Source: Alphaproteobacteria bacterium
Lineage (GTDB): Bacteria > Pseudomonadota > Alphaproteobacteria > CAAHEQ01 > UBA3637
NCBI GenBank assembly: GCA_017539265.1
Contig: JAFYHG010000027.1
Span: 13,886-77,885, forward strand
Direction of reading: 5' to 3'
Length of the DNA stretch: 64,000 bases
How positions within the stretch are numbered: position 1 is the first letter of the stretch; every line of letters starts with the position of its first letter. Made by a program: the position numbers and the translations under genes. Shown piece after piece: positions 1-16,880 of this stretch. Below the pieces are notes generated by a model. That model was not told where the DNA came from, ran no database searches, and saw only the letters and a list, made by a program, of their open reading frames with translations.

Positions 1-2
1 TC

Positions 3-575
3 ATGGTTAAAGTTATGCCGGTTAATCGCATTGCAAATTCAGAAGATTTAAACGAAATTATTAACGGAATAGATCAAGCATCCCTTGAAGCTGCTCAAGC
101 AAAGGATCCAAACAAGCCAGCAATGAATATCAGATTAGTATGTATGGGCCACGAACCGGACCTTGGTGCAAAGTTGAAAGCTGAAATTAAAAAACAAGGC
201 TTTGATGTAAATGTTGAAGTTTATGATATTCTTCGCAACGACAAAGAGCTTGAATTTAAGCATCCATCTGAAGCAAACATCGTCAAAGAAGGTAATAAAC
301 TCGTAATTCAAGATTTCTTCCCAATGAATTTATTACAAAAACTATCTATCCAAAAGGAAAACGTTGAAAATTGGAAAGAACTTGTTGAATCTGTCAAGAT
401 AGATTGGAATTATGATGGAGCCGTCTTCCAACCGGCAGTCATTGATTATCCGGAAGATAAAAAAGACATGGTAAAAGGAGTGTACGACATCCCAGCAGAT
501 GTGGGCATTGTCCGTATAAAGATAACAGACCTTTTGTCTGAGAGCTTTGAAACGGAACTTGATTGGAGTAAATAA
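3..575 (+). CDS. Hypothetical protein, probably the 3' part of a gene starting upstream of the window. Its stop lies 2 bp before the start of the helicase-nuclease gene.
   Basis: ORF runs to the window edge. TAA at 573-575, next ATG at 578, so translational coupling is likely. No recognisable motifs. A Type III Mod C-terminus would be a plausible partner but cannot be shown from this fragment. Confidence 0.4.
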   Translation: MVKVMPVNRIANSEDLNEIINGIDQASLEAAQAKDPNKPAMNIRLVCMGHEPDLGAKLKAEIKKQGFDVNVEVYDILRNDKELEFKHPSEANIVKEGNKLVIQDFFPMNLLQKLSIQKENVENWKELVESVKIDWNYDGAVFQPAVIDYPEDKKDMVKGVYDIPADVGIVRIKITDLLSESFETELDWSK

Positions 576-577
576 CC

Positions 578-3265
578 ATGGCAAGAACTTCTTCCGAACA
601 AAACTTTTCATTTGAATTCTTTTCACATTTAAAGAACTTCTATTATAACAACAGACCAAGTATTCGCAAGCACTACAAAGAGTTAACAAAACGAATACTT
701 GACTATAATGACCCAGAAAAAGGTGATGCATTCCTTAGAAAGCCTCAATTTGAAGCACTAGAAATGTATATCTTTCTGAAAGAGTTTGCAAATAACAAAA
801 AAGTTCATGAAATTTTCCGGGATTGGCATGAAGGTAAGAATGGTTTTGAAAAAGAAAAACTGGTCATTACAGAGGATGAATCTGGCCAACAAAGTTTTAT
901 GAAAACCCTTGTATTTTCAAATGAAGATGAATATAAACGTGCTTTTGATTACTTGGCCAAGTCATCTCGTCAGTACGCGAATTATATCTTTGCACTTACG
1001 ATGGGTACCGGCAAAACAATCCTTATGGCTACCTGCATATTCTACGAATTTATACTCGCAAACAAATTTAGAAATGATGCTCGTTATTGTCAGAACGCCC
1101 TGGTATTCGCACCGGATAAGACGGTTTTACAATCTTTGCGAGAAATAAAGGATTTTGATATCTCAAAAGTTTTGCCACCGGAATACGCAAATTTTATCTC
1201 ATCGGCCGTAAAGTTCCACTATTTAAGTGATACAGATACAAGCTTATCTGTTCAACCGGAATCTTTATTTAATATTATCATTTCAAATACACAAAAGATT
1301 ATTATAAAGAAACAACACAAAGAAAAATCAAAATTGGAATTGTTCTACACACAACCATCAACTCGTGCTCTTCAAGAAGAGAAACCTGAAAAAAAGAAAG
1401 ATTCAACCTTTGATGCTATTGATGAATTAATGGGTAATTCGGATGTTCCGCAGGATGAAAAAGAACTAATACCAAATGCCCGTTTTCAACGTATCGCACA
1501 GTTACCCCAGCTGGGAATATACGTTGATGAGGCCCATCACTCTATCGGTAAAGAACTCGCTAGTAGCCAAACTAACAATAAAGAAGCAAGTAGTTTAAGA
1601 ACAACTATTAACGAACTTGCCAGTCGTTTAGATGCTTGTGGTTCACGCGTTGTTGCCTGCTATAACTATACAGGTACTCCGTACATTGGTAGAAGCATTA
1701 TGCCAGAAGTTGTTTATGCCTATAGTTTGGCGGATGCAATCAAAAACAAATATCTGAAGCAAACAGATCCTATCGCGTATTCGAATATTAAATCCGAAGA
1801 CTTTATACGCAATGTCATCAAGAATTTCTGGGAACAAGAAGGGGAAAAACGCGTAGAAGATATGTTGCCAAAACTTGCTTTTTTTGCAGCAACAATTAAA
1901 GAATTGGAAGAAGAACTTCAGCCCAAAATTGAAAAAGTTCTTGATGAATTGGGTATTTCAACTGATAAAATACTGATAAATGTTGGCGATCCAAAATTAA
2001 CGACAAACGATCAACTTCGCGAGTTTAATAGTTTGGATACGCCAGAATCAAACAAACAATTCATACTTCTTGTTGGCAAAGGACGGGAGGGTTGGAATTG
2101 TCGCTCTCTATTCGGCGTAGCTTTATTCCGTAAGCCAAAATCGACCATTTTTGTCCTTCAAGCAACCATGCGTTGTCTGCGGTCGATTGGTCCAAATCAA
2201 GAAACTGGACACATTTACCTCTCTGAAGAAAACTTAAATATTTTGGATGATGAACTTCAACGTAACTTTAACGTAACTCTTGCAGATATTAAAAAGAAAA
2301 AAGAATTACCCTCTTATACAGTTAGAATGGTTCCCCCCCCAGTTAAAATCACATTAAATCGTGTAAAACGTGTTTACTCTATAAAAAAGAAGAAAGAATG
2401 TCCAGAAGGAGTCGACTTTGGTTTGGATAGCCTTGATTATAACAACTACAAAGTTATAAAGACCGATAGGATATCTTTACTTACAACAATGGCAAAGGTA
2501 ACAGATATTACAGAAACAACAAGTAGACGACAGTTTAGTGCTTATATGCTTGTTGCTGAGATCGCTCGCTACTTTAACAATTCAGATGTTTCATGCTTCA
2601 TAATCAAGAAGATACTCGAGGCATCTAAGGAAGGTATAGCTAAAATTGTTGATACTGTTAATTTATATAACGATATTTTATATGATGTAATCATTCCAAT
2701 CATTTACAAAAACCTCTACGAAATTACATCAACCGACAATTCCGAACCAGAGGAGATTGAATTGGTTAAAATTAAGGATACCATTGATAAAACAGTGTTT
2801 ATTCGTAAATGTTCCGAAGATTTGGTTACCTCTATGCAAGATGCATATTTAAGAGATGTTGTTGAGAAAAGTTTTAATTTAGATACATATTGTTTTGATT
2901 CAACTCCAGAAATTGATTTCTTTAGAAAGTCTATATTTGACGACAATGTAGAAAAAATATACTTTACTGGTATGTTGACACATGGTGAATCTGATTTTTA
3001 TATTAATTATATAGATCCAGAAAGTCATACAGTTCGAAATTATTATCCTGATTTCCTAATAAAAACAAAAGACAATAAATGGCTTATTATTGAAATTAAA
3101 GGTGATAACCGGATTGATGATCCTGTTGTCCTGGCAAAAGCTGAATATGCACGCCGTTTAGCATCAGATAGTATGTTTGAGTACTATATGGTTAAGGGAA
3201 CGGATGCGAAAGACCTTGGCTTTGCGGCTCTTGATTATAAAAGTACTCAAGGTAGTTTATATTAA
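578..3265 (+). CDS. SF2 (ResIII/DEAH) helicase with a C-terminal PD-(D/E)xK-like nuclease motif, i.e. Type III restriction Res-like architecture.
   Basis: Helicase motifs seen: LRKPQFEALE (Q-like), TMGTGKT (motif I), VDEAHH (DEAH, motif II), YTGTPY (motif III), QATMRCLR (QxxGRxxR-like motif VI). Near the C-terminus, YPDFLIK ... LIIEIKG fits D...E-x-K of the PD-(D/E)xK fold. Domain order (helicase N-terminal, nuclease C-terminal) is as in Res subunits. Confidence 0.7.
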   Translation: MARTSSEQNFSFEFFSHLKNFYYNNRPSIRKHYKELTKRILDYNDPEKGDAFLRKPQFEALEMYIFLKEFANNKKVHEIFRDWHEGKNGFEKEKLVITEDESGQQSFMKTLVFSNEDEYKRAFDYLAKSSRQYANYIFALTMGTGKTILMATCIFYEFILANKFRNDARYCQNALVFAPDKTVLQSLREIKDFDISKVLPPEYANFISSAVKFHYLSDTDTSLSVQPESLFNIIISNTQKIIIKKQHKEKSKLELFYTQPSTRALQEEKPEKKKDSTFDAIDELMGNSDVPQDEKELIPNARFQRIAQLPQLGIYVDEAHHSIGKELASSQTNNKEASSLRTTINELASRLDACGSRVVACYNYTGTPYIGRSIMPEVVYAYSLADAIKNKYLKQTDPIAYSNIKSEDFIRNVIKNFWEQEGEKRVEDMLPKLAFFAATIKELEEELQPKIEKVLDELGISTDKILINVGDPKLTTNDQLREFNSLDTPESNKQFILLVGKGREGWNCRSLFGVALFRKPKSTIFVLQATMRCLRSIGPNQETGHIYLSEENLNILDDELQRNFNVTLADIKKKKELPSYTVRMVPPPVKITLNRVKRVYSIKKKKECPEGVDFGLDSLDYNNYKVIKTDRISLLTTMAKVTDITETTSRRQFSAYMLVAEIARYFNNSDVSCFIIKKILEASKEGIAKIVDTVNLYNDILYDVIIPIIYKNLYEITSTDNSEPEEIELVKIKDTIDKTVFIRKCSEDLVTSMQDAYLRDVVEKSFNLDTYCFDSTPEIDFFRKSIFDDNVEKIYFTGMLTHGESDFYINYIDPESHTVRNYYPDFLIKTKDNKWLIIEIKGDNRIDDPVVLAKAEYARRLASDSMFEYYMVKGTDAKDLGFAALDYKSTQGSLY

Positions 3266-3274
3266 GAGTGAAAT

Positions 3275-4795
3275 ATGCAAACATCGGCAGCAATTATAAA
3301 AATTTTATTTTGGAGTCTAATACTTTATTTGACGTTTAAACCAAAGAAAAAAACAAAAGGGGAAACATTATTGCAGAATAAGACGACTGCGAAGTCTACT
3401 ACATCTTCAGAAAGAAGTGTATCTAAACCCTTGGCAACGTATATCACTGAGCCAACATCACAAATATCTATTAATAAACATCCTATTATTGATGAACCTG
3501 TTAAAAAAGCTAGTACAAAATTATCTAAATTACAGCAAGATACGTTTGAGATTATTGAAAACACGAATAAAAACATATTCATCCAAGGACAAGCTGGCAC
3601 AGGTAAATCAACTTTTGTAGATTATCTTCAGTCTCATTCTAATAAACGCATACTTGTCGCTTGCCCAACAGCAGTAGCGGCAATAAACGTTGGTGGGTCT
3701 ACCTTACATTCTTTATTTAAACTACCGCTTAGTGATTTTCTGATAATTGATGAGATTATAAAGAAACCTCGGCGTACCCTTGCTTCAATTCTTCAAAAAA
3801 CTGACTTATTAATAATTGATGAGGTTTCAATGGTGAGACCAGATATGCTCGATGCAATAGACGCACTTTCAAGAATTGCACGTTGCAACAGAAAAGTACC
3901 ATTTGGTGGCTTACAAATTCTGTTGATTGGTGATCTTTGCCAGTTACCACCGGTTATAAAGAAAAACACTTATACGGTTTTCAAACAAGAATACGGCATC
4001 TCGGCGCCTTATTTTTTTGATGCTAAATCCTATAAAAATGGTAATTTTGATAAGATCGAATTCTCAAGAGTATATCGGCAATCCGATACAGAATTGCTGA
4101 ATAATCTTATAAAATTAAGAAATTACGAAGATTTAGATTCTGTTATAGAATACTTCAATAACTGTAAAATTACAGACAAAAATATACTTGATACAGCAGT
4201 TACCATTACTCCTTACCGAGCTGTCGCAGAACAAATGAATAAACAAAGGTTGGAGGCAATAAAGGGGACAGAAAAAAACTATGAATGTAAAACAACAGGG
4301 ACATTTGATGAGGTAAAGGATTCACCAGCTCCTAGAGTATTGACATTAAGAAAGGGAGCTCTCGTAATTTTTAATAAAAATAATGGGAGCAAATGGATTA
4401 ACGGGACTAGCGGTATTGTCGAATCATTAAGTGATAATATTATAGAAGTGCGGATTTTAAAAACAAATGAGATTGTTGCAGTAAAAAGAGAAGAATGGAA
4501 AATTTATCAATATGATATTGATAAAGAGACATCAAAAGTTTATGAAAAAGAGGTTGGATCTTTTATTCAATTCCCGCTTCAACTTGGTTACGCACTAACA
4601 ATTCATAAAGCACAAGGTAAAACTCTGGATAGTGTTATCATTGATATTGATCGTGGTGCATTTGCTCATGGACAACTCTATGTCGCACTTAGTAGGACAC
4701 GCAAAAAATCCGATATCCACCTTGTAAAGCCAATTTCACTATATGATATTATACAAGATGATCACGTAATAAATTTTCTTAAAGAAATACAATAA
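3275..4795 (+). CDS. Pif1/RecD-family (AAA_30) SF1 helicase with a hydrophobic N-terminal segment and a low-complexity linker.
   Basis: Motifs: GQAGTGKST (Walker A), LLIIDEVSM (Walker B/II), ILLIGDLCQLPPV, TIHKAQGKT, LYVALSRTR. These are hallmarks of Pif1/RecD/TraA-like helicases. Starts 9 bp after the previous stop. N-terminus (IIKILFWSLILYLTF) is TM-like. Confidence 0.75.
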   Translation: MQTSAAIIKILFWSLILYLTFKPKKKTKGETLLQNKTTAKSTTSSERSVSKPLATYITEPTSQISINKHPIIDEPVKKASTKLSKLQQDTFEIIENTNKNIFIQGQAGTGKSTFVDYLQSHSNKRILVACPTAVAAINVGGSTLHSLFKLPLSDFLIIDEIIKKPRRTLASILQKTDLLIIDEVSMVRPDMLDAIDALSRIARCNRKVPFGGLQILLIGDLCQLPPVIKKNTYTVFKQEYGISAPYFFDAKSYKNGNFDKIEFSRVYRQSDTELLNNLIKLRNYEDLDSVIEYFNNCKITDKNILDTAVTITPYRAVAEQMNKQRLEAIKGTEKNYECKTTGTFDEVKDSPAPRVLTLRKGALVIFNKNNGSKWINGTSGIVESLSDNIIEVRILKTNEIVAVKREEWKIYQYDIDKETSKVYEKEVGSFIQFPLQLGYALTIHKAQGKTLDSVIIDIDRGAFAHGQLYVALSRTRKKSDIHLVKPISLYDIIQDDHVINFLKEIQ

Positions 4796-4813
4796 AAATT
4801 ATCTATTTTGTTT

Positions 4814-5506
4814 TTATTCTAGACATTTATTTAAATCCCAGGGAGTGAGAAGTGCCAATATTTTTTCCGTTGGTTTTCCATTATCGGTTATAAAGATAAC
4901 TTCCAATCTTTTATTATTATTAAAGTCATCTTTAACCATCTCTTTTACCTCATCAACCGTTATGGTTTTTGGTATAAACCTGTAATGAACATCTGGATCG
5001 TTATATAACTCACAAAAATCCTTAAGATCTTTCATACAGATCTCATTAGTCTCCTCAATTATTTCTTGCTTATGTTTATTAAAATACAGCATAAGTGAGT
5101 GTGATGAGAAAACACCCTCTATAGCCCCATTTTTATCTAGTATTGGAGAACAGGTGTAATTTTTATCAAGCATCACTTGTATCACTGTATTAACTCTTTC
5201 ATTACCTGTGACTCTATATATTTTAGCTAAAGGTATTGCTATATCAATAGCTTTTGGAGGATACATTATCCTATCAGCTTCTGCCGCGAAAGTGGTGTAT
5301 AATTCATTAGTAAGATTGATAAATTTGCCATTACGAGCATTATCTTGATGTGTTAACAAATTTCGCAATGTTTTATAGAATTTCCATGTTCCAATGTTTT
5401 TTCCAAAACATTTATCGTCTAATATATTATCTATGTTAGGATTTTTCCTTTTGACAAAGCTTTCTATTTCAGTATATTTGCTTAAAAATTTATCTATTAC
5501 TGACAT
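4814..5506 (-). CDS. Hypothetical protein with an R-x4-H (HEPN-like) motif at the N-terminus and a CBS-like C-terminal half.
   Basis: TLRNLLTHQDN gives R-x4-H. The C-terminal half has CBS-like strings (SPILDKNGAIEGVFSSHSLMLYF; KILALLTPWDL). Lies on the same strand 91 bp downstream of the WYL regulator gene. Domain calls are tentative. Confidence 0.45.
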   Translation of the reverse strand: MSVIDKFLSKYTEIESFVKRKNPNIDNILDDKCFGKNIGTWKFYKTLRNLLTHQDNARNGKFINLTNELYTTFAAEADRIMYPPKAIDIAIPLAKIYRVTGNERVNTVIQVMLDKNYTCSPILDKNGAIEGVFSSHSLMLYFNKHKQEIIEETNEICMKDLKDFCELYNDPDVHYRFIPKTITVDEVKEMVKDDFNNNKRLEVIFITDNGKPTEKILALLTPWDLNKCLE

Positions 5507-5597
5507 CTTATAACCTTTCTAAATGAAATGTATACACGTTGAATTTTACTTAAAAAACATATAAAAATCAATACTAACTATTGACTAACCCACATTT

Positions 5598-6545
5598 TTA
5601 TTTTTCCTTTATCATTGTAGCCCAATTTTTGGGTTTAATAACTTTTACGTGATTACCCCAGGTATAAAGATGCCAATCCATTTCTTTTGAACCTCCGGCA
5701 CGGAATTTAACCGTTAAAGTTCCATCATCATTATGAATCATCTTTTGTTTGGGATGAAATTGATACTCTGCGGCACTACTGGCAACTTCCTTATCAAACA
5801 GCCATTCTACATCAAAAGGTTCCTCATGGAAAATGCCAAAAGACTGGGACATAAACTTTTCCAAAGAGAACTTTTTGTCTCGAGTGAAGTAATCCTTGGA
5901 AACTTTTATATTTCTAATACGGCTGATATCAAATGTGTACATTTGACCCCGCTTTACATTCCAAGCAATCAAATATGGCTTATTCCCATAAACAAAGCCA
6001 TATGGCCAAATAACCTTTTCCGTTGTTGCTACCTTACTTTCATAGGTAATTGTAATAATTTGACAACCCAAAATAGCATTTCTTAATATTTTCATAAATT
6101 CTTTATTGATACGGACTTTTGGGCCAGGGCGAAAAGCATATTTTTCAGATTCAAAGATCATCTCGGCATCTGGTTCATACTTGTTTAAAGCTGGTTTAGT
6201 CATTCCGGCCTTTATTTTATTTAATAATCGGTCAAGATTCTCACTGTCTTCTGGTGATTGTTCCTTCATTAAACGAATCGCTCGTTCTAGAGAATGTAGC
6301 TCTGGAAAATTGATAGCAATATGTTGATTTATTGTTTCAGGGGGAATACACCAAGACTTTCTATTCCCAGGGCCCTTAATCTCCTTCAATTGTGGGAATT
6401 GTTCCTTAATTTCATTTACATAACGAATAGCTGTCCGTTTATTTACCTGATATAATTCCATGATTTGGGATAAATTGACACCTTCCATAGAACTTTGCAT
6501 TCTGGTGACAATTTCCATTAAAATAGCGGTTTTTGTGTATGGCAT
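5598..6545 (-). CDS. WYL-domain transcriptional regulator (HTH + WYL; BrxR/CapW-like architecture).
   Basis: N-terminal HTH-like segment (LSQIMELYQVNKRTAIRYVNEIK). Middle region with the WYL signature (KPYLIAWNVKRGQMYTFDISRIRNIKV). Size about 315 aa, typical of this family. Confidence 0.7.
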   Translation of the reverse strand: MPYTKTAILMEIVTRMQSSMEGVNLSQIMELYQVNKRTAIRYVNEIKEQFPQLKEIKGPGNRKSWCIPPETINQHIAINFPELHSLERAIRLMKEQSPEDSENLDRLLNKIKAGMTKPALNKYEPDAEMIFESEKYAFRPGPKVRINKEFMKILRNAILGCQIITITYESKVATTEKVIWPYGFVYGNKPYLIAWNVKRGQMYTFDISRIRNIKVSKDYFTRDKKFSLEKFMSQSFGIFHEEPFDVEWLFDKEVASSAAEYQFHPKQKMIHNDDGTLTVKFRAGGSKEMDWHLYTWGNHVKVIKPKNWATMIKEK

Positions 6546-6605
6546 AGTACTCCTTTCTGTTATTGATATATCCTACAACAAAATGAAACAAATTGCAAGT
6601 AGTAA

Positions 6606-6622
6606 GTGACAAAAGTTGTCAC
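6606..6622. promoter_or_regulatory. Perfect 7-3-7 palindrome GTGACAA-AAG-TTGTCAC in the divergent intergenic region; candidate operator for the WYL regulator.
   Basis: Read directly in the sequence. Lies between the WYL gene start (6545) and the -35 of the plus-strand operon promoter. Confidence 0.45.
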
Positions 6623-6640
6623 CGATTTCCCTTTGATATC

Positions 6641-6706: not shown

Positions 6707-7150
6707 ATGTTGATAACTGGTACAAAAGAACAAGTTCATAATTTTCTAAAAACGGAGCCACATGAGTTTTATGTGTATGTACTCTGTGAACCCAACAAGA
6801 CTCCGTTTTATGTTGGGAAAGGCTGTGGAAACCGTATATTCCAACACGAATACGAAGCTGCACGCTCAGCATCTCGTAATCCCTACAAAACTAAAATGAT
6901 TAAAAACATTACGAAAAAGGATGGTAAGATTATCTACACAATAGATAGTGTACATAAAACTGAAGAAGAGGCTTTGATTCGTGAACGTGAGCTGATGCGT
7001 GAAATCGGCAGACCATTATTAACAAACCTGTCGGAAAAAGACTATAATACGACTCATGGTCGTTTGTACTGGTCTATTACGGGTATGTTAAAAGGCATCA
7101 ACAGAACTGTTTTTAGATTAACACATTCAGGAAAGGAGACATTACAATGA
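6707..7150 (+). CDS. GIY-YIG family nuclease domain protein.
   Basis: FYVYVL ... PFYVGKG ... NRIFQH ... EEALIRERELM ... LTNL reproduces the GIY/YIG/R/H/E/N catalytic pattern. Confidence 0.65.
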   Translation: MLITGTKEQVHNFLKTEPHEFYVYVLCEPNKTPFYVGKGCGNRIFQHEYEAARSASRNPYKTKMIKNITKKDGKIIYTIDSVHKTEEEALIRERELMREIGRPLLTNLSEKDYNTTHGRLYWSITGMLKGINRTVFRLTHSGKETLQ

Positions 7151-8164: not shown

Positions 8165-9475
8165 ATGACAAAAGATATCCATACAATCAAATGCCCCAAA
8201 TGTGGAGAAGTTTTTCCGATTGATGAAAGCGGTTACGCCGCTATTGCCAGCCAAATTCGCGATAATGAGTTCCGAAAGGCTTTGGAAGAACGCTTTGAAC
8301 AAATGCAAGCGGATAAAGAAAGTGCCCTGAAACTTGCTCAGGTAACCGCTGACGCTGATAAAGAAAAATCTGTTTCTGCATTAAATCATCAAATTGATAT
8401 TTTAAATCAACAGCTAAAAACGATTAAAAAGGAAAGCGAACTTGATAAAGAGCAATCCATTGCGGAGTATAAACAGCAAATTACGGAGCTTCAGGCTCAA
8501 ATCAAGGCCAATGAAAAGGATAAAACCATTGCTGTTAATGCCGCACTGGAAGAAAATAAAGACACTTTGGTTGAAAAAGATAAAGAAATTATTGAATTGA
8601 AAGGGAAACTCCAAGGCGCCGAAAAGGATATCAAGCTTCAAGAGAAATCTTTAAAAGAAAAATACGAGATGGAATTGAAAAATAAGGACGAACTGATTGA
8701 TTATTATAAAGATTTAAAGATAAAGATGTCCACAAAAATGCTTGGGGAGACACTTGAACAGCACTGTGAAATCGCATTTAATATCATCCGTGCAACAGCT
8801 TTCCCAAATGCTTACTTTGAAAAAGACAATGACTCCAGAACAGGCAGTAAGGGGGACTATATTTTCAAAGAATCCACCGAGGATGGCATAGAATTCCTAT
8901 CCATTATGTTTGAAATGAAAAACGAAATGGATACAACAGCAACAAAACATAAAAATGAACATTTTTTCAAAGAATTAGATAAAGACCGTCAAGAAAAAGG
9001 ATGTGAATATGCCGTTTTGGTCTCTTTGCTAGAGTCGGATAGTGAGTTATATAACACGGGAATTGTTGATGTTTCCTACAAATATCCGAAAATGTATGTT
9101 ATTCGTCCACAATTCTTTATTCCTATAATCACTTTGCTCCGTAATACTTCCATGAATTCTGTTCAGTATCGCCGACAACTGGTCGAGTATAGAAACCAAA
9201 ATATAGATATTTCAAACTTTGAGGCTAAAATAGAAGATTTCAGAGACAAAATTAAGAAAAATTATCGTCTAGCAGGAGAGAGATTTAAAGCAGCAATTGA
9301 AGAAATTGACAAAAGTATAACACACTTGCAAAAAATTAAAGATGCCTTGCTTTCCACAGAAAGTAACTTACGCCTTGCTAACGATAAAGCTCAAGATTTT
9401 ACCGTCAAGAAACTCATTAAGGACAATCCGACAATGCAAAAGAAATTTGCAGAACTTAATCCACCAGAGGAATGA
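8165..9475 (+). CDS. DUF2130-like protein: N-terminal CxxC zinc ribbon, long coiled coil, and a C-terminal region with a D ... E-x-K (PD-(D/E)xK-like) arrangement.
   Basis: [29 protein letters not shown] matches the DUF2130 N-terminus as I remember it. Heptad-rich K/E middle. KGDYIF ... IMFEMKNE near the C-terminus. Confidence 0.6.
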
Positions 9476-9516: not shown

Positions 9517-10266
9517 ATGATAAAAGGAATTTGCAAATATTGTGGTCAAGAGAAAGAACTTATCAATTCTCATATAATTCCGAAAAATTTATGTCAAATT
9601 GATAAGAATGGCCCAATGGTTGGAATAGACTCTCTAACAAAGACTTTTGACCATAATCCTATACATCAAAACGGAGCAAAAGCTTACCTTCTGTGTAAGG
9701 AGTGTGATAATCTATTAGGTAAGCTAGATAGATATGGTAGTAAAGTGTTTAAGAAGATAATTCCAAATCATAAATGGGACATAGTAGATGGTGTAGAACT
9801 ATGTAAATTATTACCAGATGAAGTAGATTACTGGACATTAAAAAAGTTTTTAATTTCTGTGTTGTGGCGTGCTTCTGTAGATAAGAATGGGCCTGATTTA
9901 GGAAGATATGAAAATATTGCACTAAAAATACTTAAGGAAGAGCTTCCTGATAATTCTAACTATTTTGTTCCTTTCGTATACATACTAGACACTAAGACAC
10001 CCTTAGACTTTTCTATGGGGATTTTTGGCAATAAAACTTTAGGGAAACACATATATATTATTCACTTCCCTCATTATGAGGTAATGATTATACCTTCTGC
10101 TGAACATTCACGAGACCCAAAACTTATGGAACTATACAAGGCTTTATTCAATTGTAACCATATAATAGTTCAGAAATTTTCTATACCAACCCTGATTGAC
10201 CAACAATTGATTAACACATTAAAGATATGTCAAAAGAATGAGTTACAAAAAAAGAAAAAGTTATAA
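9517..10266 (+). CDS. Cys-cluster protein with an HNH-like arrangement (CxxC ... HIIP ... CxxCDN).
   Basis: CKYCGQEKELINSHIIPKNL and LLCKECDNLLGK. The spacing is longer than in a canonical HNH, so this is tentative. Confidence 0.4.
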   Translation: MIKGICKYCGQEKELINSHIIPKNLCQIDKNGPMVGIDSLTKTFDHNPIHQNGAKAYLLCKECDNLLGKLDRYGSKVFKKIIPNHKWDIVDGVELCKLLPDEVDYWTLKKFLISVLWRASVDKNGPDLGRYENIALKILKEELPDNSNYFVPFVYILDTKTPLDFSMGIFGNKTLGKHIYIIHFPHYEVMIIPSAEHSRDPKLMELYKALFNCNHIIVQKFSIPTLIDQQLINTLKICQKNELQKKKKL

Positions 10267-10305
10267 ATTTTCTTTTATTACAGAGAAGACGAATAAGTAG
10301 AACAC

Positions 10306-10887
10306 TTATATCGTCACATTCTCTACAGCATTTGAGAGCATTTTCTCGTTATAATTGAAGTACCTTTGAGTTGTCCCAATATTGCGGTGGTTGGCGAGTT
10401 TTTGAACCAAACAGATATTTGTGCCGGCATTGATAAGGCGACTCACGAACAAATGGCGTCCAAGATGGCTTCCCCCGTCAATATTGAACTTACTGTAAAT
10501 GTTTGAAAACATTCTGCTAATACTAACACGATTGAAAGGTTTTCCTAACTTTTGCGAGGTAAAGAGATACATTTCTGGGGTAATTTCTTCATTTTTGGTC
10601 TTTAGGTAAGAAAGATATTCCTTAAACTCTTTCTTCATTTGAGTATTAAGGTAATAAGAACACCCGAACTTGCCTTTGTTTTTATCCTTATCCAGACAAA
10701 TGACATCCTTGACCTTTAGGTCGGAAGTGTAGACATCCCCGACTTGAAGGTAAGCAAAATTTATAGACCTCATGCCATTGAGCGAGCATAGGAACATCAT
10801 CCTAATTTGTTCCGCATGTCGCATCCCCTGAATATAGGTTAAAATATCTTTGATTTTTTTATCATCTATAAAAACTTGGTTTACCAT
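10306..10887 (-). CDS. Tyrosine recombinase, catalytic domain only (193 aa).
   Basis: R (LNGMRSI), HLGRHLF (H-x-x-R), NHRNIGTTQRY (terminal H/Y) reproduce the integrase catalytic residues. No N-terminal core-binding domain is present. Confidence 0.65.
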   Translation of the reverse strand: MVNQVFIDDKKIKDILTYIQGMRHAEQIRMMFLCSLNGMRSINFAYLQVGDVYTSDLKVKDVICLDKDKNKGKFGCSYYLNTQMKKEFKEYLSYLKTKNEEITPEMYLFTSQKLGKPFNRVSISRMFSNIYSKFNIDGGSHLGRHLFVSRLINAGTNICLVQKLANHRNIGTTQRYFNYNEKMLSNAVENVTI

Positions 10888-10967
10888 TTTTTATCCTTTC
10901 GTAAAAATTGAACAGTTTTATGCGGCCCAGGACTATAGAGCCGATTTTTTTCAAAGCCAAGCCCTAA

Positions 10968-12788
10968 ATGTTAAAAAATGTTATTTTTTTGAATAAAATT
11001 AAACATTTTGAAATACTTGCCTGGAATGACGTTTTCAAAAACATTGATTTTATAAGGCTATTAGGGATAATGTTAAATAATGTATGTTTTTTAACATTTT
11101 TCATTTTTCTGGACTTTTGGATGATTTTATTGTATACTGCGACCAGTTTTTTAAATTTTCATGGATTCAGTATGCGAATAAACCGTCCAAATTATTTTAG
11201 CGAGATTGACGAGCAAGATGTCCTCTTCTATGGAGAGGAAGGACGCTTTCGGAGAATATCCCTAGATTTCTGGAAAGATGTTTACCCAAATATATTGCAA
11301 GCGTACTTATCAACCAAACAACCCGAAAATGATTTTAAGGACACTTTTGTAGACCCGTCATTTTATCCGATAGGTCCAGAACATGCACTACGTTTATGCA
11401 CGAGGGTGTTTACAGATATCTTTCCTTCGTGTTTCGAAACAAATTACTCGGAACTTCCTGATAGACCTGGTAAGTTATATGAAAAGGATATAGAGCCACT
11501 TAAAGACAAAAAAGGGCTTGTTGGGGCTATTGCGAGAACATGGAACAAAATAGGCAAATATGGAGACTATCATTTTTTACAGCTCCTAGAGATTGTTAGC
11601 ACATTTAAAAATGGTATTGTAAAACTTACGGATAAACTGCCAGACCCACTATATGCTGATTTTGTAAAAGAAATACGTGCAGTCTTTTATAAGTACGCAG
11701 ATTTATTGAATAATAAAGAAATCAGAAAAGAAATTGATAAAATCGTTTTCTTAAAGCATCCGAATGCAACTAAAAAGATTAAGTCCCCAAGAGGATATCG
11801 GATAGTTAAGGCAGAATACGCCCGTTGTGAACTTATTTTTGAAAATGTGGATTTTGGTAGGAAAGAACAGGAGCTTTTCTGGAACATACTAACGATTCCA
11901 GAGGGTTTTGTTCCAATGGAAACAGCTTTTTTCCTTAATTGTAGATTTTCTGCAACCTATACATGTCCTACAAAAGTAATTCGTCCCAGGGCTTTGTTCA
12001 GATACTGCATATTTGAAAAAGAATTTGCCCCAGCTCCATATATCCAGCAATCATGGAGATTTATAAACTGTACAATAAAAAACAAATTTAATTTCAGAAA
12101 AACAGTGCTACGCAGAGGGCTTTTCTTTCATGGATGTGTGTTTGAGTCGGAAAGTTCATTCATATTTGATAATTCACGTGGCAACCGTTGGGTTCCGAAA
12201 GATTACCCATATAATAAACTTTATTTTACAGACACAATATTTGGCGGTGATTTCTCCATAATGAATACAAGTTTAAGTCATACTGAATTTGTATTGAAGA
12301 ATGTCGCATTTTTCAAAACATTCCGCTTTGATGAAGTCAGATTAAGTGATAAGTGCACTTTTGAACGTATTAGTTTTGCTTTGGGAAGTACTCCGCAAAT
12401 AATACAATGTAAACAAACTTTTGTTGAAATGCTCCAATTACACGGATATCATGCGGAACTTGATTCACTGGGATTATTAAGTAAAAATTCTAACAAAAAA
12501 AGAGCTCAACGCTTTTATACATCATGGCTTCATCCAATCGAAGCAGCCGAATTTCTTTCCAAAAGCATAAGTTGGTTAGCCAAGAAAAGACAAGCCGACA
12601 GATTAAAGAAAACAAAGACTTCTATACCATTTGTTGGGGAAAAGAAAAATATTTTATACCCCAAGACAGCCTTACAGGCATTCCGTTCACAAGATTGGAA
12701 TAAGTTAAAAGAACTCTGTAAAAAATATGGAGTTGGTGAGAAAGAAAAACCCAAATCTGCCGACATTAGCATATTTGATGTAGATTAA
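10968..12788 (+). CDS. Large hypothetical protein (start uncertain; hydrophobic N-terminus).
   Basis: Long ORF. Its last ~95 nt are duplicated downstream of the abi gene. Confidence 0.45.
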   Translation: MLKNVIFLNKIKHFEILAWNDVFKNIDFIRLLGIMLNNVCFLTFFIFLDFWMILLYTATSFLNFHGFSMRINRPNYFSEIDEQDVLFYGEEGRFRRISLDFWKDVYPNILQAYLSTKQPENDFKDTFVDPSFYPIGPEHALRLCTRVFTDIFPSCFETNYSELPDRPGKLYEKDIEPLKDKKGLVGAIARTWNKIGKYGDYHFLQLLEIVSTFKNGIVKLTDKLPDPLYADFVKEIRAVFYKYADLLNNKEIRKEIDKIVFLKHPNATKKIKSPRGYRIVKAEYARCELIFENVDFGRKEQELFWNILTIPEGFVPMETAFFLNCRFSATYTCPTKVIRPRALFRYCIFEKEFAPAPYIQQSWRFINCTIKNKFNFRKTVLRRGLFFHGCVFESESSFIFDNSRGNRWVPKDYPYNKLYFTDTIFGGDFSIMNTSLSHTEFVLKNVAFFKTFRFDEVRLSDKCTFERISFALGSTPQIIQCKQTFVEMLQLHGYHAELDSLGLLSKNSNKKRAQRFYTSWLHPIEAAEFLSKSISWLAKKRQADRLKKTKTSIPFVGEKKNILYPKTALQAFRSQDWNKLKELCKKYGVGEKEKPKSADISIFDVD

Positions 12789-12790
12789 AC
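12695..12790. repeat. Direct repeat copy 1 (96 bp), including the 3' end of the 10968-12788 gene.
   Basis: 95/96 identical to 13985-14080 by direct reading. Confidence 0.9.
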
Positions 12791-12839
12791 GGTTTATCTT
12801 ATTGAAAATAAATACGATATAAAATTAATTAAAAAAGTG

Positions 12840-12868
12840 TTGACTCATAATTTTTTTTATATTATAAT
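12840..12868 (+). promoter_or_regulatory. Consensus sigma70 promoter TTGACT-17-TATAAT upstream of the abi gene.
   Basis: TTGACT at 12840-12845, 17-nt spacer, TATAAT at 12863-12868. Confidence 0.5.
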
Positions 12869-12914
12869 ATACATAACAAGCCCTTCCCGCTAAAGGCAGA
12901 GATGTACAGCGAAT

Positions 12915-13979
12915 ATGGAAGGGCATTATTTTAAGGTTATAGAAATGCAGAGAGTCAAATTTTTTAAAGAATCAAAAACCCCTGATGAGCTTATAGAACA
13001 ACTTGTTAAACGTGGTATGGTAATTACAAATCGTGATTATGCTAAAGATATTTTATTTAAAATTAATTATTATCGTTTATCAGGATATTGGTTTAAATTT
13101 CAAAATAAATGGTTAAAGCAATTGCCAGTTCCAGAAAACGCAACCAGTGAAGAAATTGATGAACTGAATAATCAATTTATCAGACGGGTATCCTTTGAAA
13201 ATATTGTTGATATATACAGATTTGATAGTAAATTACGTTCTTTATGCATAGATGCACTGGAGAAAATAGAAATTGGAATTAGCTCTGTTCTCTGTAATCA
13301 TATGTGCCAAAAGTATGGCGGATATTGGTTTTTAAATAAACAGCTTGTGCAAAAAGTCACAAAAAAAACTAAAGAAGGAGAAAAAGTTTTATTTAATCAT
13401 GATTTATTAATGGAAGACATTGATAAGTTATTAGCAAAAAATAAACGAACAAAATGTATCAAAAATTTTCGAGTAAAATATACTGATGAATATCCTCCTT
13501 ACTGGATATTAGCTCAATTGGTAACATTTGGAACTTTATCGAAAATTTATTCTTCTTTACCCCCTGTAGATAAAAAAGAAATTGCAAAGATGCTAGGTGT
13601 AAATGATGAACTGTTATCACACAGCCTCACATTACTGTCTTATATTAGAAATATTTGTGCTCATTATGCCCGCTTATGGGATAATGATAATAGTGTTGTC
13701 CCTTTGAATATTAATTTTAATCGCATAGAACCCAACAGTATTTTTAATTATCGCTTTCATACAAATGGAAAGAATAGTGCAACATTCTTCCCAGTATTTT
13801 ATTTAATAACCTTATACTTATATATGCTTTATCCGAAATCTAAATGGTGCTCCATTGTTGAACAAAAAATTAAAGAATATGAGAAATTAACAGATTCATT
13901 GGTTTCTTTTAAGACCATGGGATTTTTAGATACGTGGAGAGAATTACCATTATTCATAAGAATGCTCAAGAATGCGTAA
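12915..13979 (+). CDS. Abi_2 family (AbiD/AbiF-like) abortive infection protein.
   Basis: N-terminus ... TPDELIEQLVKRGMVITNRDYAKDILFKINYYRLSGYWF is a classic Abi_2 start. Later, IRNICAHYARLWDN gives the R-x4-H (HEPN) motif of this family. Confidence 0.8.
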   Translation: MEGHYFKVIEMQRVKFFKESKTPDELIEQLVKRGMVITNRDYAKDILFKINYYRLSGYWFKFQNKWLKQLPVPENATSEEIDELNNQFIRRVSFENIVDIYRFDSKLRSLCIDALEKIEIGISSVLCNHMCQKYGGYWFLNKQLVQKVTKKTKEGEKVLFNHDLLMEDIDKLLAKNKRTKCIKNFRVKYTDEYPPYWILAQLVTFGTLSKIYSSLPPVDKKEIAKMLGVNDELLSHSLTLLSYIRNICAHYARLWDNDNSVVPLNINFNRIEPNSIFNYRFHTNGKNSATFFPVFYLITLYLYMLYPKSKWCSIVEQKIKEYEKLTDSLVSFKTMGFLDTWRELPLFIRMLKNA

Positions 13980-13984
13980 CTTAA

Positions 13985-14080
13985 TTGGAATAACTTAAAA
14001 GAACTCTGTAAAAAATATGGAGTTGGTGAGAAAGAAAAACCCAAATCTGCCGACATTAGCATATTTGATGTAGATTAAAC
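13985..14080. repeat. Direct repeat copy 2 (96 bp).
   Basis: Matches 12695-12790 with one mismatch. Confidence 0.9.
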
Positions 14081-14596
14081 GATTCCCTTATGTAAAATTA
14101 GGTCGAACATAATGTCCCAAGCTGTTTGTCCTTTCTTATTTTTTAAATTGGTTAAGTCTGCTCCATAGTCCAAGAAGGCATAAAGAAGTTTCTTTTTACG
14201 GTGGATGTTTTTATCAAAAAGGACTCTCATTAAAGCTGTATTGCCCCAAATGTCCTGTGTATCTAACTCCGCCCCTGAATCCACAAATAACCAGGGCACT
14301 ATGGCTTCACATTGTCCTTCAACCGCACGCATTAGAGGAGTTTCCCCGTGTTGGTTGGTCTTGTTCACATCTCCGCCCATGTTTATTAAGGCTTCAATTC
14401 TTTCCCCATCTTTAAAATAATTCATAGCGTATAAAAATGGAGTCATGCCAATCGGGGGCATAGGTCTGTTTAAGTCTGCTCCTTTCTTTACATAGTATTG
14501 TATGAGTTTCAAATTCCTTTCTTTAATGGCTTTTAATAGGTCTTCCTGTATATTCATAGTCTCTCCTTTTAAATTATTTATCCCTACTGATTCCAC
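14075..14596 (-). CDS. Ankyrin-repeat protein.
   Basis: ANK consensus stretches (GMTPFLYAMN ... GETPLMRAVEGQ ... GNTALMRVL ... GADLN). Confidence 0.7.
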   Translation of the reverse strand: MESVGINNLKGETMNIQEDLLKAIKERNLKLIQYYVKKGADLNRPMPPIGMTPFLYAMNYFKDGERIEALINMGGDVNKTNQHGETPLMRAVEGQCEAIVPWLFVDSGAELDTQDIWGNTALMRVLFDKNIHRKKKLLYAFLDYGADLTNLKNKKGQTAWDIMFDLILHKGIV

Positions 14597-15028
14597 TTAT
14601 GAATCAAAAATATTTTTAAAGAGTTGAACCAAATTCGTGTGTACCTCTCTTTGTAATAGAGGGACTTGTTTCTCACTTAAATGGAAACCATGTCGCTTCA
14701 TGCTGTCCAAAATGTAGCGAACAGTTTCTGGTTTTACTCTAACCAACATCTTCATCAAATATTCAAATTGGCTCGGTCGGTTCAGGTGTAATCCGTAGTA
14801 TTTGTATTTGAACAATAACTCCAGCATCTTGTCCCAGTTCGTCTCACAAAACTGATACACCCAAGCCAGCGGCTGGTTGTTAAAAGACTTCTGAATATCT
14901 GCCCCTTTGAGTAAAATCTCCACCATTTCCATGTCTGGATGGAATGTGCTAAACTGGCAAAGGGGTGTTTCCTCTTTCTTACAATCGGCTTTCCCCAGTA
15001 TTGTTTCCTTGATTTGTTCACTGTCCAT
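14597..15028 (-). CDS. Hypothetical protein, possibly a degenerate ankyrin (MEMVEILLKGADIQ).
   Basis: Zero-nt gap to the downstream ankyrin gene. Confidence 0.4.
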   Translation of the reverse strand: MDSEQIKETILGKADCKKEETPLCQFSTFHPDMEMVEILLKGADIQKSFNNQPLAWVYQFCETNWDKMLELLFKYKYYGLHLNRPSQFEYLMKMLVRVKPETVRYILDSMKRHGFHLSEKQVPLLQREVHTNLVQLFKNIFDS

Positions 15029-15029
15029 C

Positions 15030-15401
15030 TTAATACTCCATGTTCCAGAACAAAACTTTTCCTTGATAGTAAAATTTCCATTTTCCCCTCGGACAATCCG
15101 TAAAAGGAATATGCTGGTAGTAAATTAATCTTACCCTTTTCCTAAATGCTATTCTGGCTTTGTTGCCCTCTTTGACAGTTAGCGTAATTCCTATCAAGTC
15201 ATTGTTTAATTCTGGCTTCGTTTTGATAACACTCTCCACAAGGTCTAATAACCAATATGCCCCAGCTTTCTCACAAAATATTTTTACCCCGTCCGTGTAC
15301 TCGTATGATATGTGCTGGTTGGTGTAATAATTTTCAGTCCCCGTACAGAAATACAAAGCCTGTCTTACTTGTAATGCTCTTTCATCAACTTGGTTATCCA
15401 T
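15030..15401 (-). CDS. Hypothetical protein (123 aa).
   Basis: First gene of a tight minus-strand three-gene operon. Confidence 0.4.
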   Translation of the reverse strand: MDNQVDERALQVRQALYFCTGTENYYTNQHISYEYTDGVKIFCEKAGAYWLLDLVESVIKTKPELNNDLIGITLTVKEGNKARIAFRKRVRLIYYQHIPFTDCPRGKWKFYYQGKVLFWNMEY

Positions 15402-15653
15402 AATGTCTCCTTTCTGTTATTACAAAAAGGATTGTAACATAAAGGAACGTTTGCGTTCCCGAGGCATATGTTGTAAAGAAATTGCTCGGTTCAAATACCC
15501 GATAGCCCTTATGTATACAGCAATTTCCTTAAAAAACAAGTGCATTTTAAAAAAGTGTAAAAAAATGTAAAAAAAGGCTTGATTTTATCGTTCCTTATTT
15601 TGCATAAAGCAAACTGCCGATAAATACCCACAGATATTATAAAAGGAGCCAAA

Positions 15654-16244
15654 ATGATTTATGGGTATTGCAGATGTTCAACTGATAAGCAGACGGTATC
15701 ACATCAACACTATGAAGTTCAAAAGTTCGCAGCCACCAATGGTGTTCAAGTTGATGAATGGATTGAGGAAACCATAAGTTCAAGAAAACCACTTGCCAAA
15801 AGAAAGTTGGGTGAGTTATTAAATAATATGAAAGAAGGAGATGTTCTGATAACCCCCGAAATCTCCCGTATTGGTAGAAGCCTATTAGAAATAATGTCTA
15901 TTTTACAGACTTGTTTAGAAAAGAACTGCCAGATATGGACAATTAAAGAGAACTACCGCTTGGGTGCTGATATCCAAAGCAAGGTGCTAGCGTTTGCGTT
16001 TGGCTTAGCAGCCGAAATCGAGCGTAATCTTATTTCTCAACGCACAAAGGCAAGTTTGGAATCATTGAAAAAGAATGGTAAAAAACTCGGTCGTCCGTTT
16101 GGGGCTAAAAATAAGTCCCTGAAACTGTCCAAAAATCGCACCAGAATCAACAGTCTTCTTGCTAAAGGCTTGCCCAAGGCTCAAATTGCCCGCATTTTCG
16201 GTGTGGATAAGATGACTATGTATAGGTTCTTAAAGGGAGAATGA
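15654..16244 (+). CDS. Serine recombinase (resolvase/invertase family).
   Basis: GYCRCSTDKQ catalytic N-terminus with the serine nucleophile. C-terminal HTH (KAQIARIFGVDKMTMYRFL). Confidence 0.8.
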   Translation: MIYGYCRCSTDKQTVSHQHYEVQKFAATNGVQVDEWIEETISSRKPLAKRKLGELLNNMKEGDVLITPEISRIGRSLLEIMSILQTCLEKNCQIWTIKENYRLGADIQSKVLAFAFGLAAEIERNLISQRTKASLESLKKNGKKLGRPFGAKNKSLKLSKNRTRINSLLAKGLPKAQIARIFGVDKMTMYRFLKGE

Positions 16245-16308
16245 GTGTTTGATTCCATTATTAAATCGTTTCCGAATAAATAAAAATGTTAGGAAATAAG
16301 GAGTCTTA

Positions 16309-16743
16309 ATGATTGTCGATTTAGATAAAATCTCTGAAAATATGAACCATATTAAGGATAAATTAGGGGAAGCCAAGCAGATTGTGCCACCACAGAAAAA
16401 GCCCATCAAATCTGTGGATGAGGAGGTAGATGACGAACTGGAGAAGCCATATTATAAGTATCAGGAAGAGGACACAAGATTCATAACAAAATGCTATAAG
16501 TATCTAAGGAAACTTGGTCTTGTGGAATCCCAATACCAGTTCTCAGAACAGTTCCTAAACAAGAACAAATACTATTTTGGCATGATACTATGTGAACAAA
16601 GGCATCCATCTATTGATTCAATCCACAACCTGATACGAAATATCTCAGACCTGAATGACGGGCTTGTCAACAGGATGTATTTAGAAAGGCTTTATGAAGA
16701 GGGACAAGCCATGATTACCAACCGTCTTTTGAAGTATTTTTGA
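16309..16743 (+). CDS. Hypothetical protein (144 aa).
   Basis: ORF with an AGGAGTC RBS-like sequence upstream. Confidence 0.4.
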   Translation: MIVDLDKISENMNHIKDKLGEAKQIVPPQKKPIKSVDEEVDDELEKPYYKYQEEDTRFITKCYKYLRKLGLVESQYQFSEQFLNKNKYYFGMILCEQRHPSIDSIHNLIRNISDLNDGLVNRMYLERLYEEGQAMITNRLLKYF

Positions 16744-16772
16744 CATCTGCTTTTTCAACATTTTTGCCTAAG

Positions 16773-16880
16773 TGGTACACAAGGGTGATACACACTTTTG
16801 ACAATGTGGACAAGTAACCTTTTGATATACATGAAAAAAGTGATATTCATCACCTATGTACAGGGGTGATACACCATTTG
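16773..16880. repeat. Cluster of GTGATACAC-type motifs at the island/core boundary.
   Basis: GGTGATACAC occurs at 16784-16793 and 16865-16874. GTGGTACACA at 16773. Imperfect palindrome GTGATATTCATCAC at 16840. Confidence 0.3.

Follow-up and report, generated by a model that had tools for sequence, protein, structure and literature searches.

Is the AT-rich left end of this 64,000-nucleotide (nt) stretch of contig JAFYHG010000027.1 (the whole stretch is termed the window below) a single mobile element steered by its own recombinases, or an accumulation of defence genes that arrived separately? The window belongs to an uncultured gut alphaproteobacterium represented by a metagenome-assembled genome (MAG), and its first 17 kb encode restriction-modification (R-M) proteins, helicases, nuclease-type proteins, a WYL regulator, an abortive-infection (Abi) protein, a tyrosine recombinase (TyrRec) and a serine recombinase. 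We consider it probable that positions 1 to ~17020 are the right part of a strain-variable, mosaic defence island built of separately acquired, independent cassettes. Since the cassettes assort independently and a separate conserved module lies beside them, the island is read as a mosaic and not as one unit. Part A (1-10300) holds the independently assorting cassettes, namely an R-M trio, a trailing helicase, and a WYL/CBS pair with its string of nuclease-type genes, and part B (10306 to ~17020) is a distinct module, into which AbiD and the serine recombinase were inserted in the strain studied here. Base composition, domain content, cassette boundaries, variability between strains and recurrence of the module were each observed directly and are presented below. 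Window coordinates are used throughout, with negative numbers for positions left of the window start, and L-numbers label the contigs and loci that were compared.

Composition, extent and strain variability of the island

A preliminary description of this DNA had claimed that 1-16800 is more AT-rich than the core from about 25 kb onward. By our measurements, the GC content of 1-16968 was 0.3455 compared to 0.392-0.424 across all 301 stretches of that length elsewhere in the 64-kb window, and in 2-kb windows it was 0.31-0.375 up to 16 kb and 0.40-0.47 over most of the remainder. Island genes had a mean GC of 0.356 compared to 0.411 for other genes (Mann-Whitney p=1.6e-4). The claim thus stands, and it extends to GC at third codon positions (GC3; mean 0.336 for island genes versus 0.400 for the rest, p=0.0065) and to the dinucleotide signature, with an island-core distance of 139-159 (x1000) compared to 43 between the two core halves. 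The core is itself not homogeneous and includes shorter AT-rich patches at 26.6-28.3 kb, 46-50 kb and 58.5-63.4 kb. No housekeeping gene was found among the profile matches in 1-17 kb, in agreement with the preliminary description. At least two recognised defence systems cluster in the island (AbiD and a type III-like Mod/Res pair), which is one of the tests we applied for a defence island, beside composition and variation among close relatives, and more than half of the island genes have no match to a catalogued PADLOC defence system.

The island reaches beyond the window. To the left, AT-rich DNA goes on for 9,422 nt at GC 0.31-0.39 in contig L006, whose 10.6 kb of overlap with the window are 99.98% identical to it, and this extension encodes a PDDEXK_4 protein, an ankyrin protein, a patatin-like lipase, a DinB-type polymerase, a 955-amino-acid (aa) UvrD/Cas4-like nuclease-helicase and a methyltransferase. 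The island therefore spans at least 26.4 kb, of which window positions 1 to ~17020 are the right-hand two-thirds or so. The right junction was measured at 16968 to ~17020; of the bounds proposed earlier, the right one holds and the left one does not, as the island continues for at least 9.4 kb. No tRNA gene was detected between -9.4 and 17 kb, and Rfam and tandem-repeat scans of 1-26 kb revealed nothing relevant.

The nearest species representatives are Pseudomonadota/Alphaproteobacteria MAGs, including ones from Hadza gut and roe deer, with CdaA proteins 76%, 70% and 64% identical to that of the window (~41% for Candidatus Enterousia). Core gene order is already scrambled in these nearest genomes (64-76% protein identity), and synteny at the species level, which had been proposed as a check, is thus uninformative. 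Strain-level metagenome contigs were compared in its place and revealed that synteny is lost in the region. The PDDEXK_4 gene is present at 93% nt identity in L090-L095, six contigs of further samples that diverge at -8414, past which the genes of the window are replaced by cargo encoding McrB, McrC, Ham1-like, NUDIX, GNAT and other proteins. Left of the island edge, these contigs encode a WYL regulator, a P-type ATPase and yajC-secD-secF; in L090, GC changes from 0.48 to 0.30 exactly at this edge, beside the P-type ATPase, and the AT-rich block terminates at a tRNA-Lys. The flanks of the hotspot were definable via related strains only. On the right, contig L005 was 97% identical in nt across 15186-16968 and then continued into valS, a gene not present in the window, and not into the autotransporter-like gene that follows the island in the window. 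A finer alignment of L005 placed the end of shared sequence at ~17020, past a terminator hairpin with a different stem in the two strains. A co-occurring strain (L190) was 99.5% identical over 21538-34877 and had a strongly divergent autotransporter allele (L190 1-4914); the strain-variable zone may reach 21.5 kb. Relatives of the cassettes occur in distant phyla and on mobile elements. Taken together, the non-uniform composition and the swaps of cargo and flanks between strains 93-97% identical support horizontal acquisition of a defence island, as had been proposed.

Table 1. Location and main domain evidence of the features of the island that lie in the window.
Feature	Position	Strand	Length	Description
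Mod	1..575	+	627 aa (whole protein)	Last 190 codons of an N6/N4 DNA methyltransferase; listed open reading frame (ORF) 3-575
Res	578..3265	+	895 aa	Res-like superfamily 2 (SF2) helicase with C-terminal PD-ExK (TnsA-like) nuclease
PIF1/RecD-like helicase	3275..4795	+	506 aa	Superfamily 1 (SF1) helicase; starts 9 nt past res
CBS-domain protein	4814..5506	-	230 aa	Pfam CBS, 24.8 bits
WYL regulator	5598..6545	-		WYL + WCX, BrxR/CapW-like
GIY-YIG nuclease	6707..7150	+	147 aa	Pfam LEM-3_GIY-YIG, E=2e-11
Small ORF 1	7147-7461	+		Weakly like oligonucleotide-binding (OB)/single-stranded DNA-binding (SSB) proteins
Small ORF 2	7477-7671	+
Small ORF 3	7730-8149	+
DUF2130 protein	8165..9475	+	436 aa	Coiled coil and PD-(D/E)xK superfamily domain
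249-aa protein	9517..10266	+	249 aa	CxxC...SHIIP...CxxC motifs
TyrRec	10306..10887	-	193 aa	Catalytic domain only; left end of module
Intergenic regulatory region	10888..11171			Two conserved divergent promoters with four motifs between them
p540	11172..12788	+	538 aa	Listed start at 10968 (606-aa ORF) is spurious
AbiD cassette	12694..14084	+		AbiD gene at 12915-13979
Ank	14075-14596	-		Operon with p143 and DUF6876
p143	14597-15028	-		Operon with Ank and DUF6876
DUF6876 protein	15030-15401	-		Operon with Ank and p143
Serine recombinase	15654..16244	+	196 aa	Pfam Resolvase (110.7 bits) + HTH_7
DUF6626 protein	16309..16743	+	144 aa	Last module gene; Pfam DUF6626, 34.4 bits
Module terminus	16744..17020			Conserved ...CCCCTTCACTCCCGCCACT ending at 16968, then bidirectional terminator hairpin at 16977-16999

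Cassettes of the left part

The start of the Mod gene lies 1308 nt beyond the left end of the window (the entire gene is found at L006 8115-9998) and lies directly upstream of res with a gap of 2 nt. Its product matched PADLOC MTase_III at E=5e-58 and EcoP15I Mod (4zcf_A) at E=3e-17. Res scored above the cut-offs of both Pfam ResIII (26.4 bits) and Tn7_TnsA-like_N (29.9 bits) and had a local, 45-residue match to PADLOC REase_III (E=2.6e-6). Three sets of residues were invariant in Res and nine homologues of several phyla, namely the Walker A motif GTGKT (G143/G145/K146/T147), the DEAHH motif (D317-H321) and P824/D825...E839/K841. The family comprises at least 4814 homologues, many labelled type III restriction enzyme, and Res is ~52% identical to proteins from Bacillales, Alphaproteobacteria and Acidobacteriota. 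Assignment of Res to EcoP15I Res by structure was tried and dropped, as the model was too poor; as Res could be tied to EcoP15I Res neither by sequence nor by this low-confidence model, the system is named type III-like. Mod would methylate adenine within an asymmetric site, and Res would communicate between unmethylated sites using ATP and cut DNA by its C-terminal PD-ExK nuclease. Res is the single protein in the window that is both helicase and nuclease, and the helicase-nucleases of the preliminary description are in this way reduced to one.

The Mod/Res pair is preceded by the UvrD/Cas4-like gene (~955 aa), the three genes together occupying L006 5192-12688 (window -4231 to 3265). This trio recurs with unrelated neighbours (L104-L109) in Novosphingobium fuchskuhlense, where it is located on an integrase/AlpA element, and in other metagenomic genomes, including L108; thus, the unit is a three-gene cassette, and it may represent a distinct type III-like subtype. 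The PIF1/RecD-like helicase that trails res (Pfam PIF1, E=3e-28, plus AAA_30 and UvrD_C_2; generic RecD-like matches only in PADLOC) is not kept beside res elsewhere and lies outside the conserved cassette. The N-terminus of this helicase (encoded by 3275-3360) is hydrophobic (AAIIKILFWSLILYLTF) and is followed by a lysine-rich segment, which suggests a membrane anchor, a feature unusual in that helicase family.

The WYL regulator scored 40.7 bits for Pfam WYL and 34.1 bits for WCX and matched PADLOC WYL over residues 8-306 (E=1e-26); its helix-turn-helix was not flagged separately by Pfam, and the PADLOC profile aligned from residue 8. The gene for the CBS-domain protein, which had no match in PADLOC or PHROG, lies downstream on the same strand. 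The WYL gene is divergent from the gene string at 6707-10266, and a WYL paralogue is present at the left edge of the island in related strains. WYL regulators of the BrxR family sit beside diverse defence systems (PMC9122601), and the regulator of the window may likewise repress the adjacent string, with infection relieving the repression.

Within this string, the GIY-YIG nuclease had a partial match to PADLOC PD-T4-3 (E=1.4e-9, profile positions 14-88 of 256). The three small ORFs were called identically in independent assemblies; the first scored 23.3 bits for Pfam SSB, under the cut-off of 26, and no further profile matches, including to PADLOC and PHROG, were found for the three. The DUF2130 protein matched its Pfam family at 288 bits (E=8e-86), a family included in a survey of the PD-(D/E)XK superfamily (PMC3424549). 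None of the neighbour genes in the window is shared by 80 loci with DUF2130 relatives (52-67% identity), and these loci rule out 6707-10266 as a single conserved operon or new multi-gene system. The 249-aa protein gave sub-threshold matches only to HNH_5 (E=0.2) and Endonuclease_7 (E=0.13), matched PHROG 19960, a family of unknown function (E=3e-16), and had no match in PDB, plasmid or phage records; it is at most a candidate HNH-like Zn-ribbon nuclease. Thus, profile searches confirmed the earlier WYL, Abi, GIY-YIG and PD-(D/E)xK (DUF2130) calls, and the HNH candidate did not hold up. PADLOC, likewise proposed as a check, yielded matches of its profile hidden Markov models (HMMs) to AbiD, MTase_III and WYL, with that to PD-T4-3 partial and that to REase_III local.

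The right-hand module and the two recombinases

The right-hand part of the island is a 6.7-kb module with the gene order TyrRec, p540, Ank, p143, DUF6876, DUF6626 and a conserved terminus. It recurs beside different defence genes in related gut bacteria, among L096-L103, in at least five further loci with other outer flanks and other inserted cargo, and in all loci compared the homologues of p540 sit in this same module. Homology begins exactly at the stop codon of TyrRec and ends at the conserved terminus; past ~17020 the flanks differ between genomes, and L005 diverges at 16968. The autotransporter, valS, tig-clpP, GNAT/PNP and a 320-aa ORF make up the outer flanks found across genomes. In L096, L099, L102 and L103, orthologues of Ank, p143 and DUF6876 are 50-73% identical and kept in order, and those of DUF6626 are 60-67% identical. 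TyrRec is 87-94% identical in L099 and L102, compared to 46-73% for the remaining module genes. In L102, the DNA immediately left of TyrRec encodes a type I R-M system, a UvrD helicase and a T5orf172 protein, a placement like that of the defence genes in the window. L096-L098 have an insertion of an AAA_21/RloB pair, and there a serine recombinase with a 112-aa ORF stands in place of TyrRec. The Ank gene matched Pfam Ank families, and the DUF6876 gene its own family (78.5 bits). A plasmid or phage origin of the module was considered and rejected: DUF6876 was found only on cyanobacterial plasmids at ~30% identity, and DUF6626 had no match in plasmid or phage records.

Relatives of TyrRec (193/194 aa, 73-74% identical) were also seen outside the module, in two human-gut metagenome loci of 33-34% GC (L110 1407-1985 and L142 2242-2826). 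There the gene adjoins that of a PHP/AAA-ATPase-like protein of 958 aa and lies 3-4 kb from a DUF2130 gene; thus, the short TyrRec also accompanies defence-like genes in different arrangements.

The p540 family is very rare, with 10 word-sharing homologues among 5.8e9 proteins and, by profile search, 42 cluster representatives at E<=1e-30 among 1.84e9. The start methionine is the same in 8 of the 9 homologues compared. An AlphaFold2 (AF2) model (predicted local distance difference test, pLDDT, of 74) comprises an N-terminal helical domain, a beta-helix and a C-terminal winged helix-turn-helix. Foldseek returned local matches to BldC (probability 0.87), the RdfS excisionase (probability 0.72) and beta-helix folds, and no whole-chain fold match.

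The intergenic region between TyrRec and p540 has a leftward promoter (TTGGCT-17-TATAGT) and a rightward promoter (TGGACT-17-TATACT). Four AATGTTAA/TTAACATT motifs lie between them, include a 13-nt perfect inverted repeat (10966-10978 / 11087-11099), and are read as putative operators. Layout and orientation of the region are alike in the window, L099 and L102. An invertible promoter beside TyrRec was considered on account of the 13-nt inverted repeat and rejected, as the repeat belongs to the four motifs between two conserved promoters and the 10966-11099 segment never changes orientation among the window, L003, L004, L099, L100 and L102; the conserved p540 promoter lies outside the repeat. 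In L102, one 43-nt sequence (9756-9798 and 13026-13068) precedes both TyrRec and the DUF6876 operon, and the same holds for L103; in L099 a different sequence is duplicated at these two places. The duplicate matches the leftward promoter, which suggests co-regulation or, less likely, paired recombination sites, and we rejected the direct repeat of L102 as an attL/attR pair. In the window, the second 43-nt copy is replaced by the serine-recombinase insertion.

Two cassettes interrupt the module in this strain. AbiD matched Pfam Abi_2 at 172.8 bits (1e-50, positions 2-184 of 184) and PADLOC AbiD at 204 bits (9e-61, positions 4-274 of 277). With a promoter of its own (TTGACT-17-TATAAT at 12840-12868), it may act as a single-gene abortive-infection cassette. 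Direct repeats of 101 nt (12694-12794 / 13984-14084; 98% identical, spacing 1290 nt) flank the cassette. The repeat duplicates the final 31 codons and stop of p540, and both p540 and the convergent ankyrin gene are therefore intact; in four relatives, p540 is directly convergent with Ank and AbiD is missing. Either the target was duplicated over an unusual length, or a circle of 1290 nt was inserted by a single crossover and left this footprint. The serine recombinase is located on an 844-nt segment inserted between DUF6876 and DUF6626, and it is missing from the module in L099, L102 and L103.

TyrRec consists of a Phage_integrase domain only (64 bits, profile positions 2-170 of 172), with HxxR, H and Y residues that align with those of XerA, and it fails the FimB/FimE-type profile NF007370 (35.9 bits versus a cut-off of 221). 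The serine recombinase was assigned to the Mpi family by NCBIfam NF009949 (277.4 bits versus a cut-off of 272; residues 1-194 on positions 1-194 of 203). Both enzymes are thus of the types that the preliminary description had named, a catalytic-domain-only tyrosine recombinase and a Hin/resolvase-like serine recombinase. Genes ~50% identical to that of the serine recombinase occur on plasmids of many phyla in unrelated contexts, and a resolvase role is thus as likely as an invertase role. Mpi-type inversion targets were sought and set aside: the Bacteroides fragilis consensus ARACGTWCGT has 0 matches in the window, and no candidate switches were found window-wide. No convincing inverted repeats were found near the serine recombinase gene, which at most would encode a resolvase or local invertase. 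Neither enzyme has the architecture of an integrase, TyrRec being without an N-terminal DNA-binding domain and no large serine integrase being present. The right-end sequence was sought in 26 kb as an att repeat with nothing above chance, and profile searches of the island found no conjugation, replication or phage structural genes. With no att repeats, tRNA target, conjugation or phage genes, an integrase role is unsupported for both enzymes; most likely they are local resolvase/invertase-type or module-specific enzymes and not island integrases. A mobile island driven by these recombinases is therefore unsupported.

This evidence bears on two further readings of the locus. In the first, only the 6.7-kb module is an autonomous mobile or island-nucleating element, moved by TyrRec with p540 as its partner, and 1-10300 is separate hotspot cargo. 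We judge this rather unlikely. Conservation of the module in at least five other loci with differing outer flanks, and the other right flank of the 97%-identical strain (L005), count in its favour, but the core synteny of the relatives is scrambled and the differing flanks are hence weak evidence. Homology is sharply bounded from the TyrRec stop codon to the conserved terminus, yet the search for repeats at its ends, or for a duplicated target, yielded none. The high identity of TyrRec compared to the other module genes, and the defence genes inserted in or abutting the module in the window, L096 and L102, also fit this reading; by contrast, the motif cluster beside TyrRec looks like operators and was never seen rearranged, and neither a circular form nor an empty site was observed.

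In the second, the whole AT-rich block is one integrative element (a genomic island or the remnant of an integrative and mobilizable or integrative and conjugative element, IME/ICE) that uses one or both recombinases as integrase or excisionase. This we hold to be improbable. Two recombinases are present, but one is without an N-terminal DNA-binding domain and the other is a 196-aa enzyme of resolvase/invertase type. The excisionase-like winged helix-turn-helix of p540, encoded beside TyrRec, would suit such an element, yet the direct repeat expected from the right end was not found in 26 kb. Likewise, the island of L090 terminates at tRNA-Lys, whereas no tRNA is present at either end of the DNA available for this strain. 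The right terminus is conserved and abuts differing flanks in six loci, but the cassettes assort independently, the serine recombinase is missing from most copies of the module, and genes for conjugation, replication or phage structure are lacking.

Returning to the mosaic island, native chromosomal DNA that became AT-rich through weak selection on non-essential genes, without horizontal acquisition, is a very improbable substitute for it. Further AT-rich patches in the core and the core-like GC3 of the module genes at 14-16.7 kb would be in keeping with native DNA, but cargo is replaced between strains 93-97% identical, Res is as close as ~52% to Bacillales and Acidobacteriota proteins, the trio is found on a Novosphingobium integrative element, and the dinucleotide distance is more than threefold that within the core. 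An assembly or binning artefact that joined AT-rich DNA of another organism to the core is scarcely credible: the source is a MAG, and two assemblies break within the neighbouring autotransporter gene, but two further independent assemblies also contain the 16968-17214 junction, L003 extends 4.2 kb into the autotransporter, the left edge of the island is contiguous with yajC-secDF and the P-type ATPase in related strains, and -9422 to 21163 is reproduced jointly, at 99.98% identity to the window, by the assemblies of three independent samples, such that the autotransporter junction is not an assembly artefact.

Several points weigh against a mosaic defence island. The left end in this strain lies beyond the available DNA, and no empty site was recovered. 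GC3 is core-like (0.39-0.49) in the genes at 14075-16743 and in TyrRec, and thus not all of 1-17 kb need be recently acquired. The CBS protein, the small ORFs, p540, Ank, p143, DUF6876 and DUF6626 are devoid of any defence annotation, and PADLOC was used at the HMM level only, without its system rules. Res had no match to EcoP15I Res by phmmer or by profile search of PDB sequences, and its AF2 model was poor (pLDDT 64), with Foldseek matches to generic SF2 helicases and HsdR only. Biochemical activities, regulation and the roles of the recombinases are all deduced from sequence.

Surrounding DNA and relation to known systems

Right of the island, the core part of the window encodes cdaA, a two-component system, ffh-rpsP-rimM-trmD-rplS, galE, yejABEF-like transporters and eptA. 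The 1500-aa autotransporter-like ORF that adjoins the island (17159-21661) has no Pfam match and looks like a variable surface protein. It is followed at 21803-24877 by a 1024-aa SF2 helicase of core-like composition (ResIII 84 bits, weak PbeA/HsdR-like matches) with repeated LTNDPxGIxxFE units in its C-terminal half; its gene, outside but close to the island, may also be of defence type. A CdaA-type diadenylate cyclase at 25762-26625 (201 bits, above the TIGR00159 cut-off) is conserved across related gut Alphaproteobacteria. Cell-envelope modification genes, namely a GtrII-like glucosyltransferase gene at 26661-28280 (30% GC) and CptA/EptA-type phosphoethanolamine transferase genes at 58586-63371 (32-33% GC), may also be horizontally acquired. 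Another small insertion may be present around the AT-rich ORF at 49053-49577 (26% GC), which adjoins tRNA-Lys(UUU): a 53-nt direct repeat (48024-48076 / 49709-49761) lies around this ORF, and two copies of a 42-nt palindromic terminator-like sequence (48953-48994 / 49906-49947) flank it.

The island adds a well-delimited, strain-variable example from a poorly known lineage of uncultured gut Alphaproteobacteria, and separation of its recognisable systems from their uncharacterised neighbours points to the latter as possible candidate defence genes. The UvrD/Cas4-like, Mod and Res cassette, which crosses phyla, and the recurrent module, headed by TyrRec and a very rare protein family, that edges defence cargo in several genomes may be of use to specialists; short of a demonstration of mobility or of new immunity functions, both leave current understanding as it is.

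Among known systems, type III R-M of the EcoP15I kind shares with the island a Mod gene directly upstream of Res, a Mod profile match, and a Res with SF2 DEAH and PD-ExK motifs. By contrast, the Res described here has no detectable sequence similarity to EcoP15I Res, and its Mod/Res pair is always preceded by the UvrD/Cas4-like gene and here followed by the PIF1-like helicase. The WYL gene resembles those of BrxR/CapW regulators in its WYL and C-terminal WCX domains, in its divergent placement next to defence-type genes and in the second copy at the island edge (PMC9122601), and differs in being co-transcribed with a CBS-domain protein gene. AbiD has the full-length profile matches of AbiD/AbiF (Abi_2) proteins and forms a single-gene cassette with its own promoter; it differs in being at most 31% identical to plasmid Abi proteins and inserted with a 101-nt duplication.

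With FimB/FimE invertases, TyrRec shares its length, the missing N-terminal domain and the catalytic residues, but it scores below the profile cut-off and no invertible segment was found. The serine enzyme is akin to the Mpi/Hin/Tn3 resolvase types in scoring above the Mpi cut-off and in its C-terminal HTH_7, whereas the window has no ARACGTWCGT repeats. Gamma-Mobile-Trio (GMT) islands are defined by a GmtY-GmtZ-GmtX trio and share with this locus a conserved, recombinase-containing core set at one end of defence-rich islands (10.1101/2023.03.28.534373); here, by contrast, GmtZ and GmtX homologues and a second integrase are missing, GmtY scores 18.9 bits versus a cut-off of 340, and the host is of another class. 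By functional analogy to GMT, the TyrRec-p540 module could be an undescribed island-building or self-mobilising platform of gut Alphaproteobacteria, in which the short TyrRec would borrow DNA-binding specificity from p540 and the module would nucleate or carry defence cassettes such as AbiD (window), AAA_21/RloB (L096) and type I R-M (L102); we regard this possibility as quite doubtful. With strain-variable hotspot defence islands, the locus has in common the clustering of R-M, Abi, nuclease, helicase, WYL and recombinase genes, an atypical composition and the replacement of cargo between strains, and it differs from the known examples in its host, an uncultured gut alphaproteobacterium.

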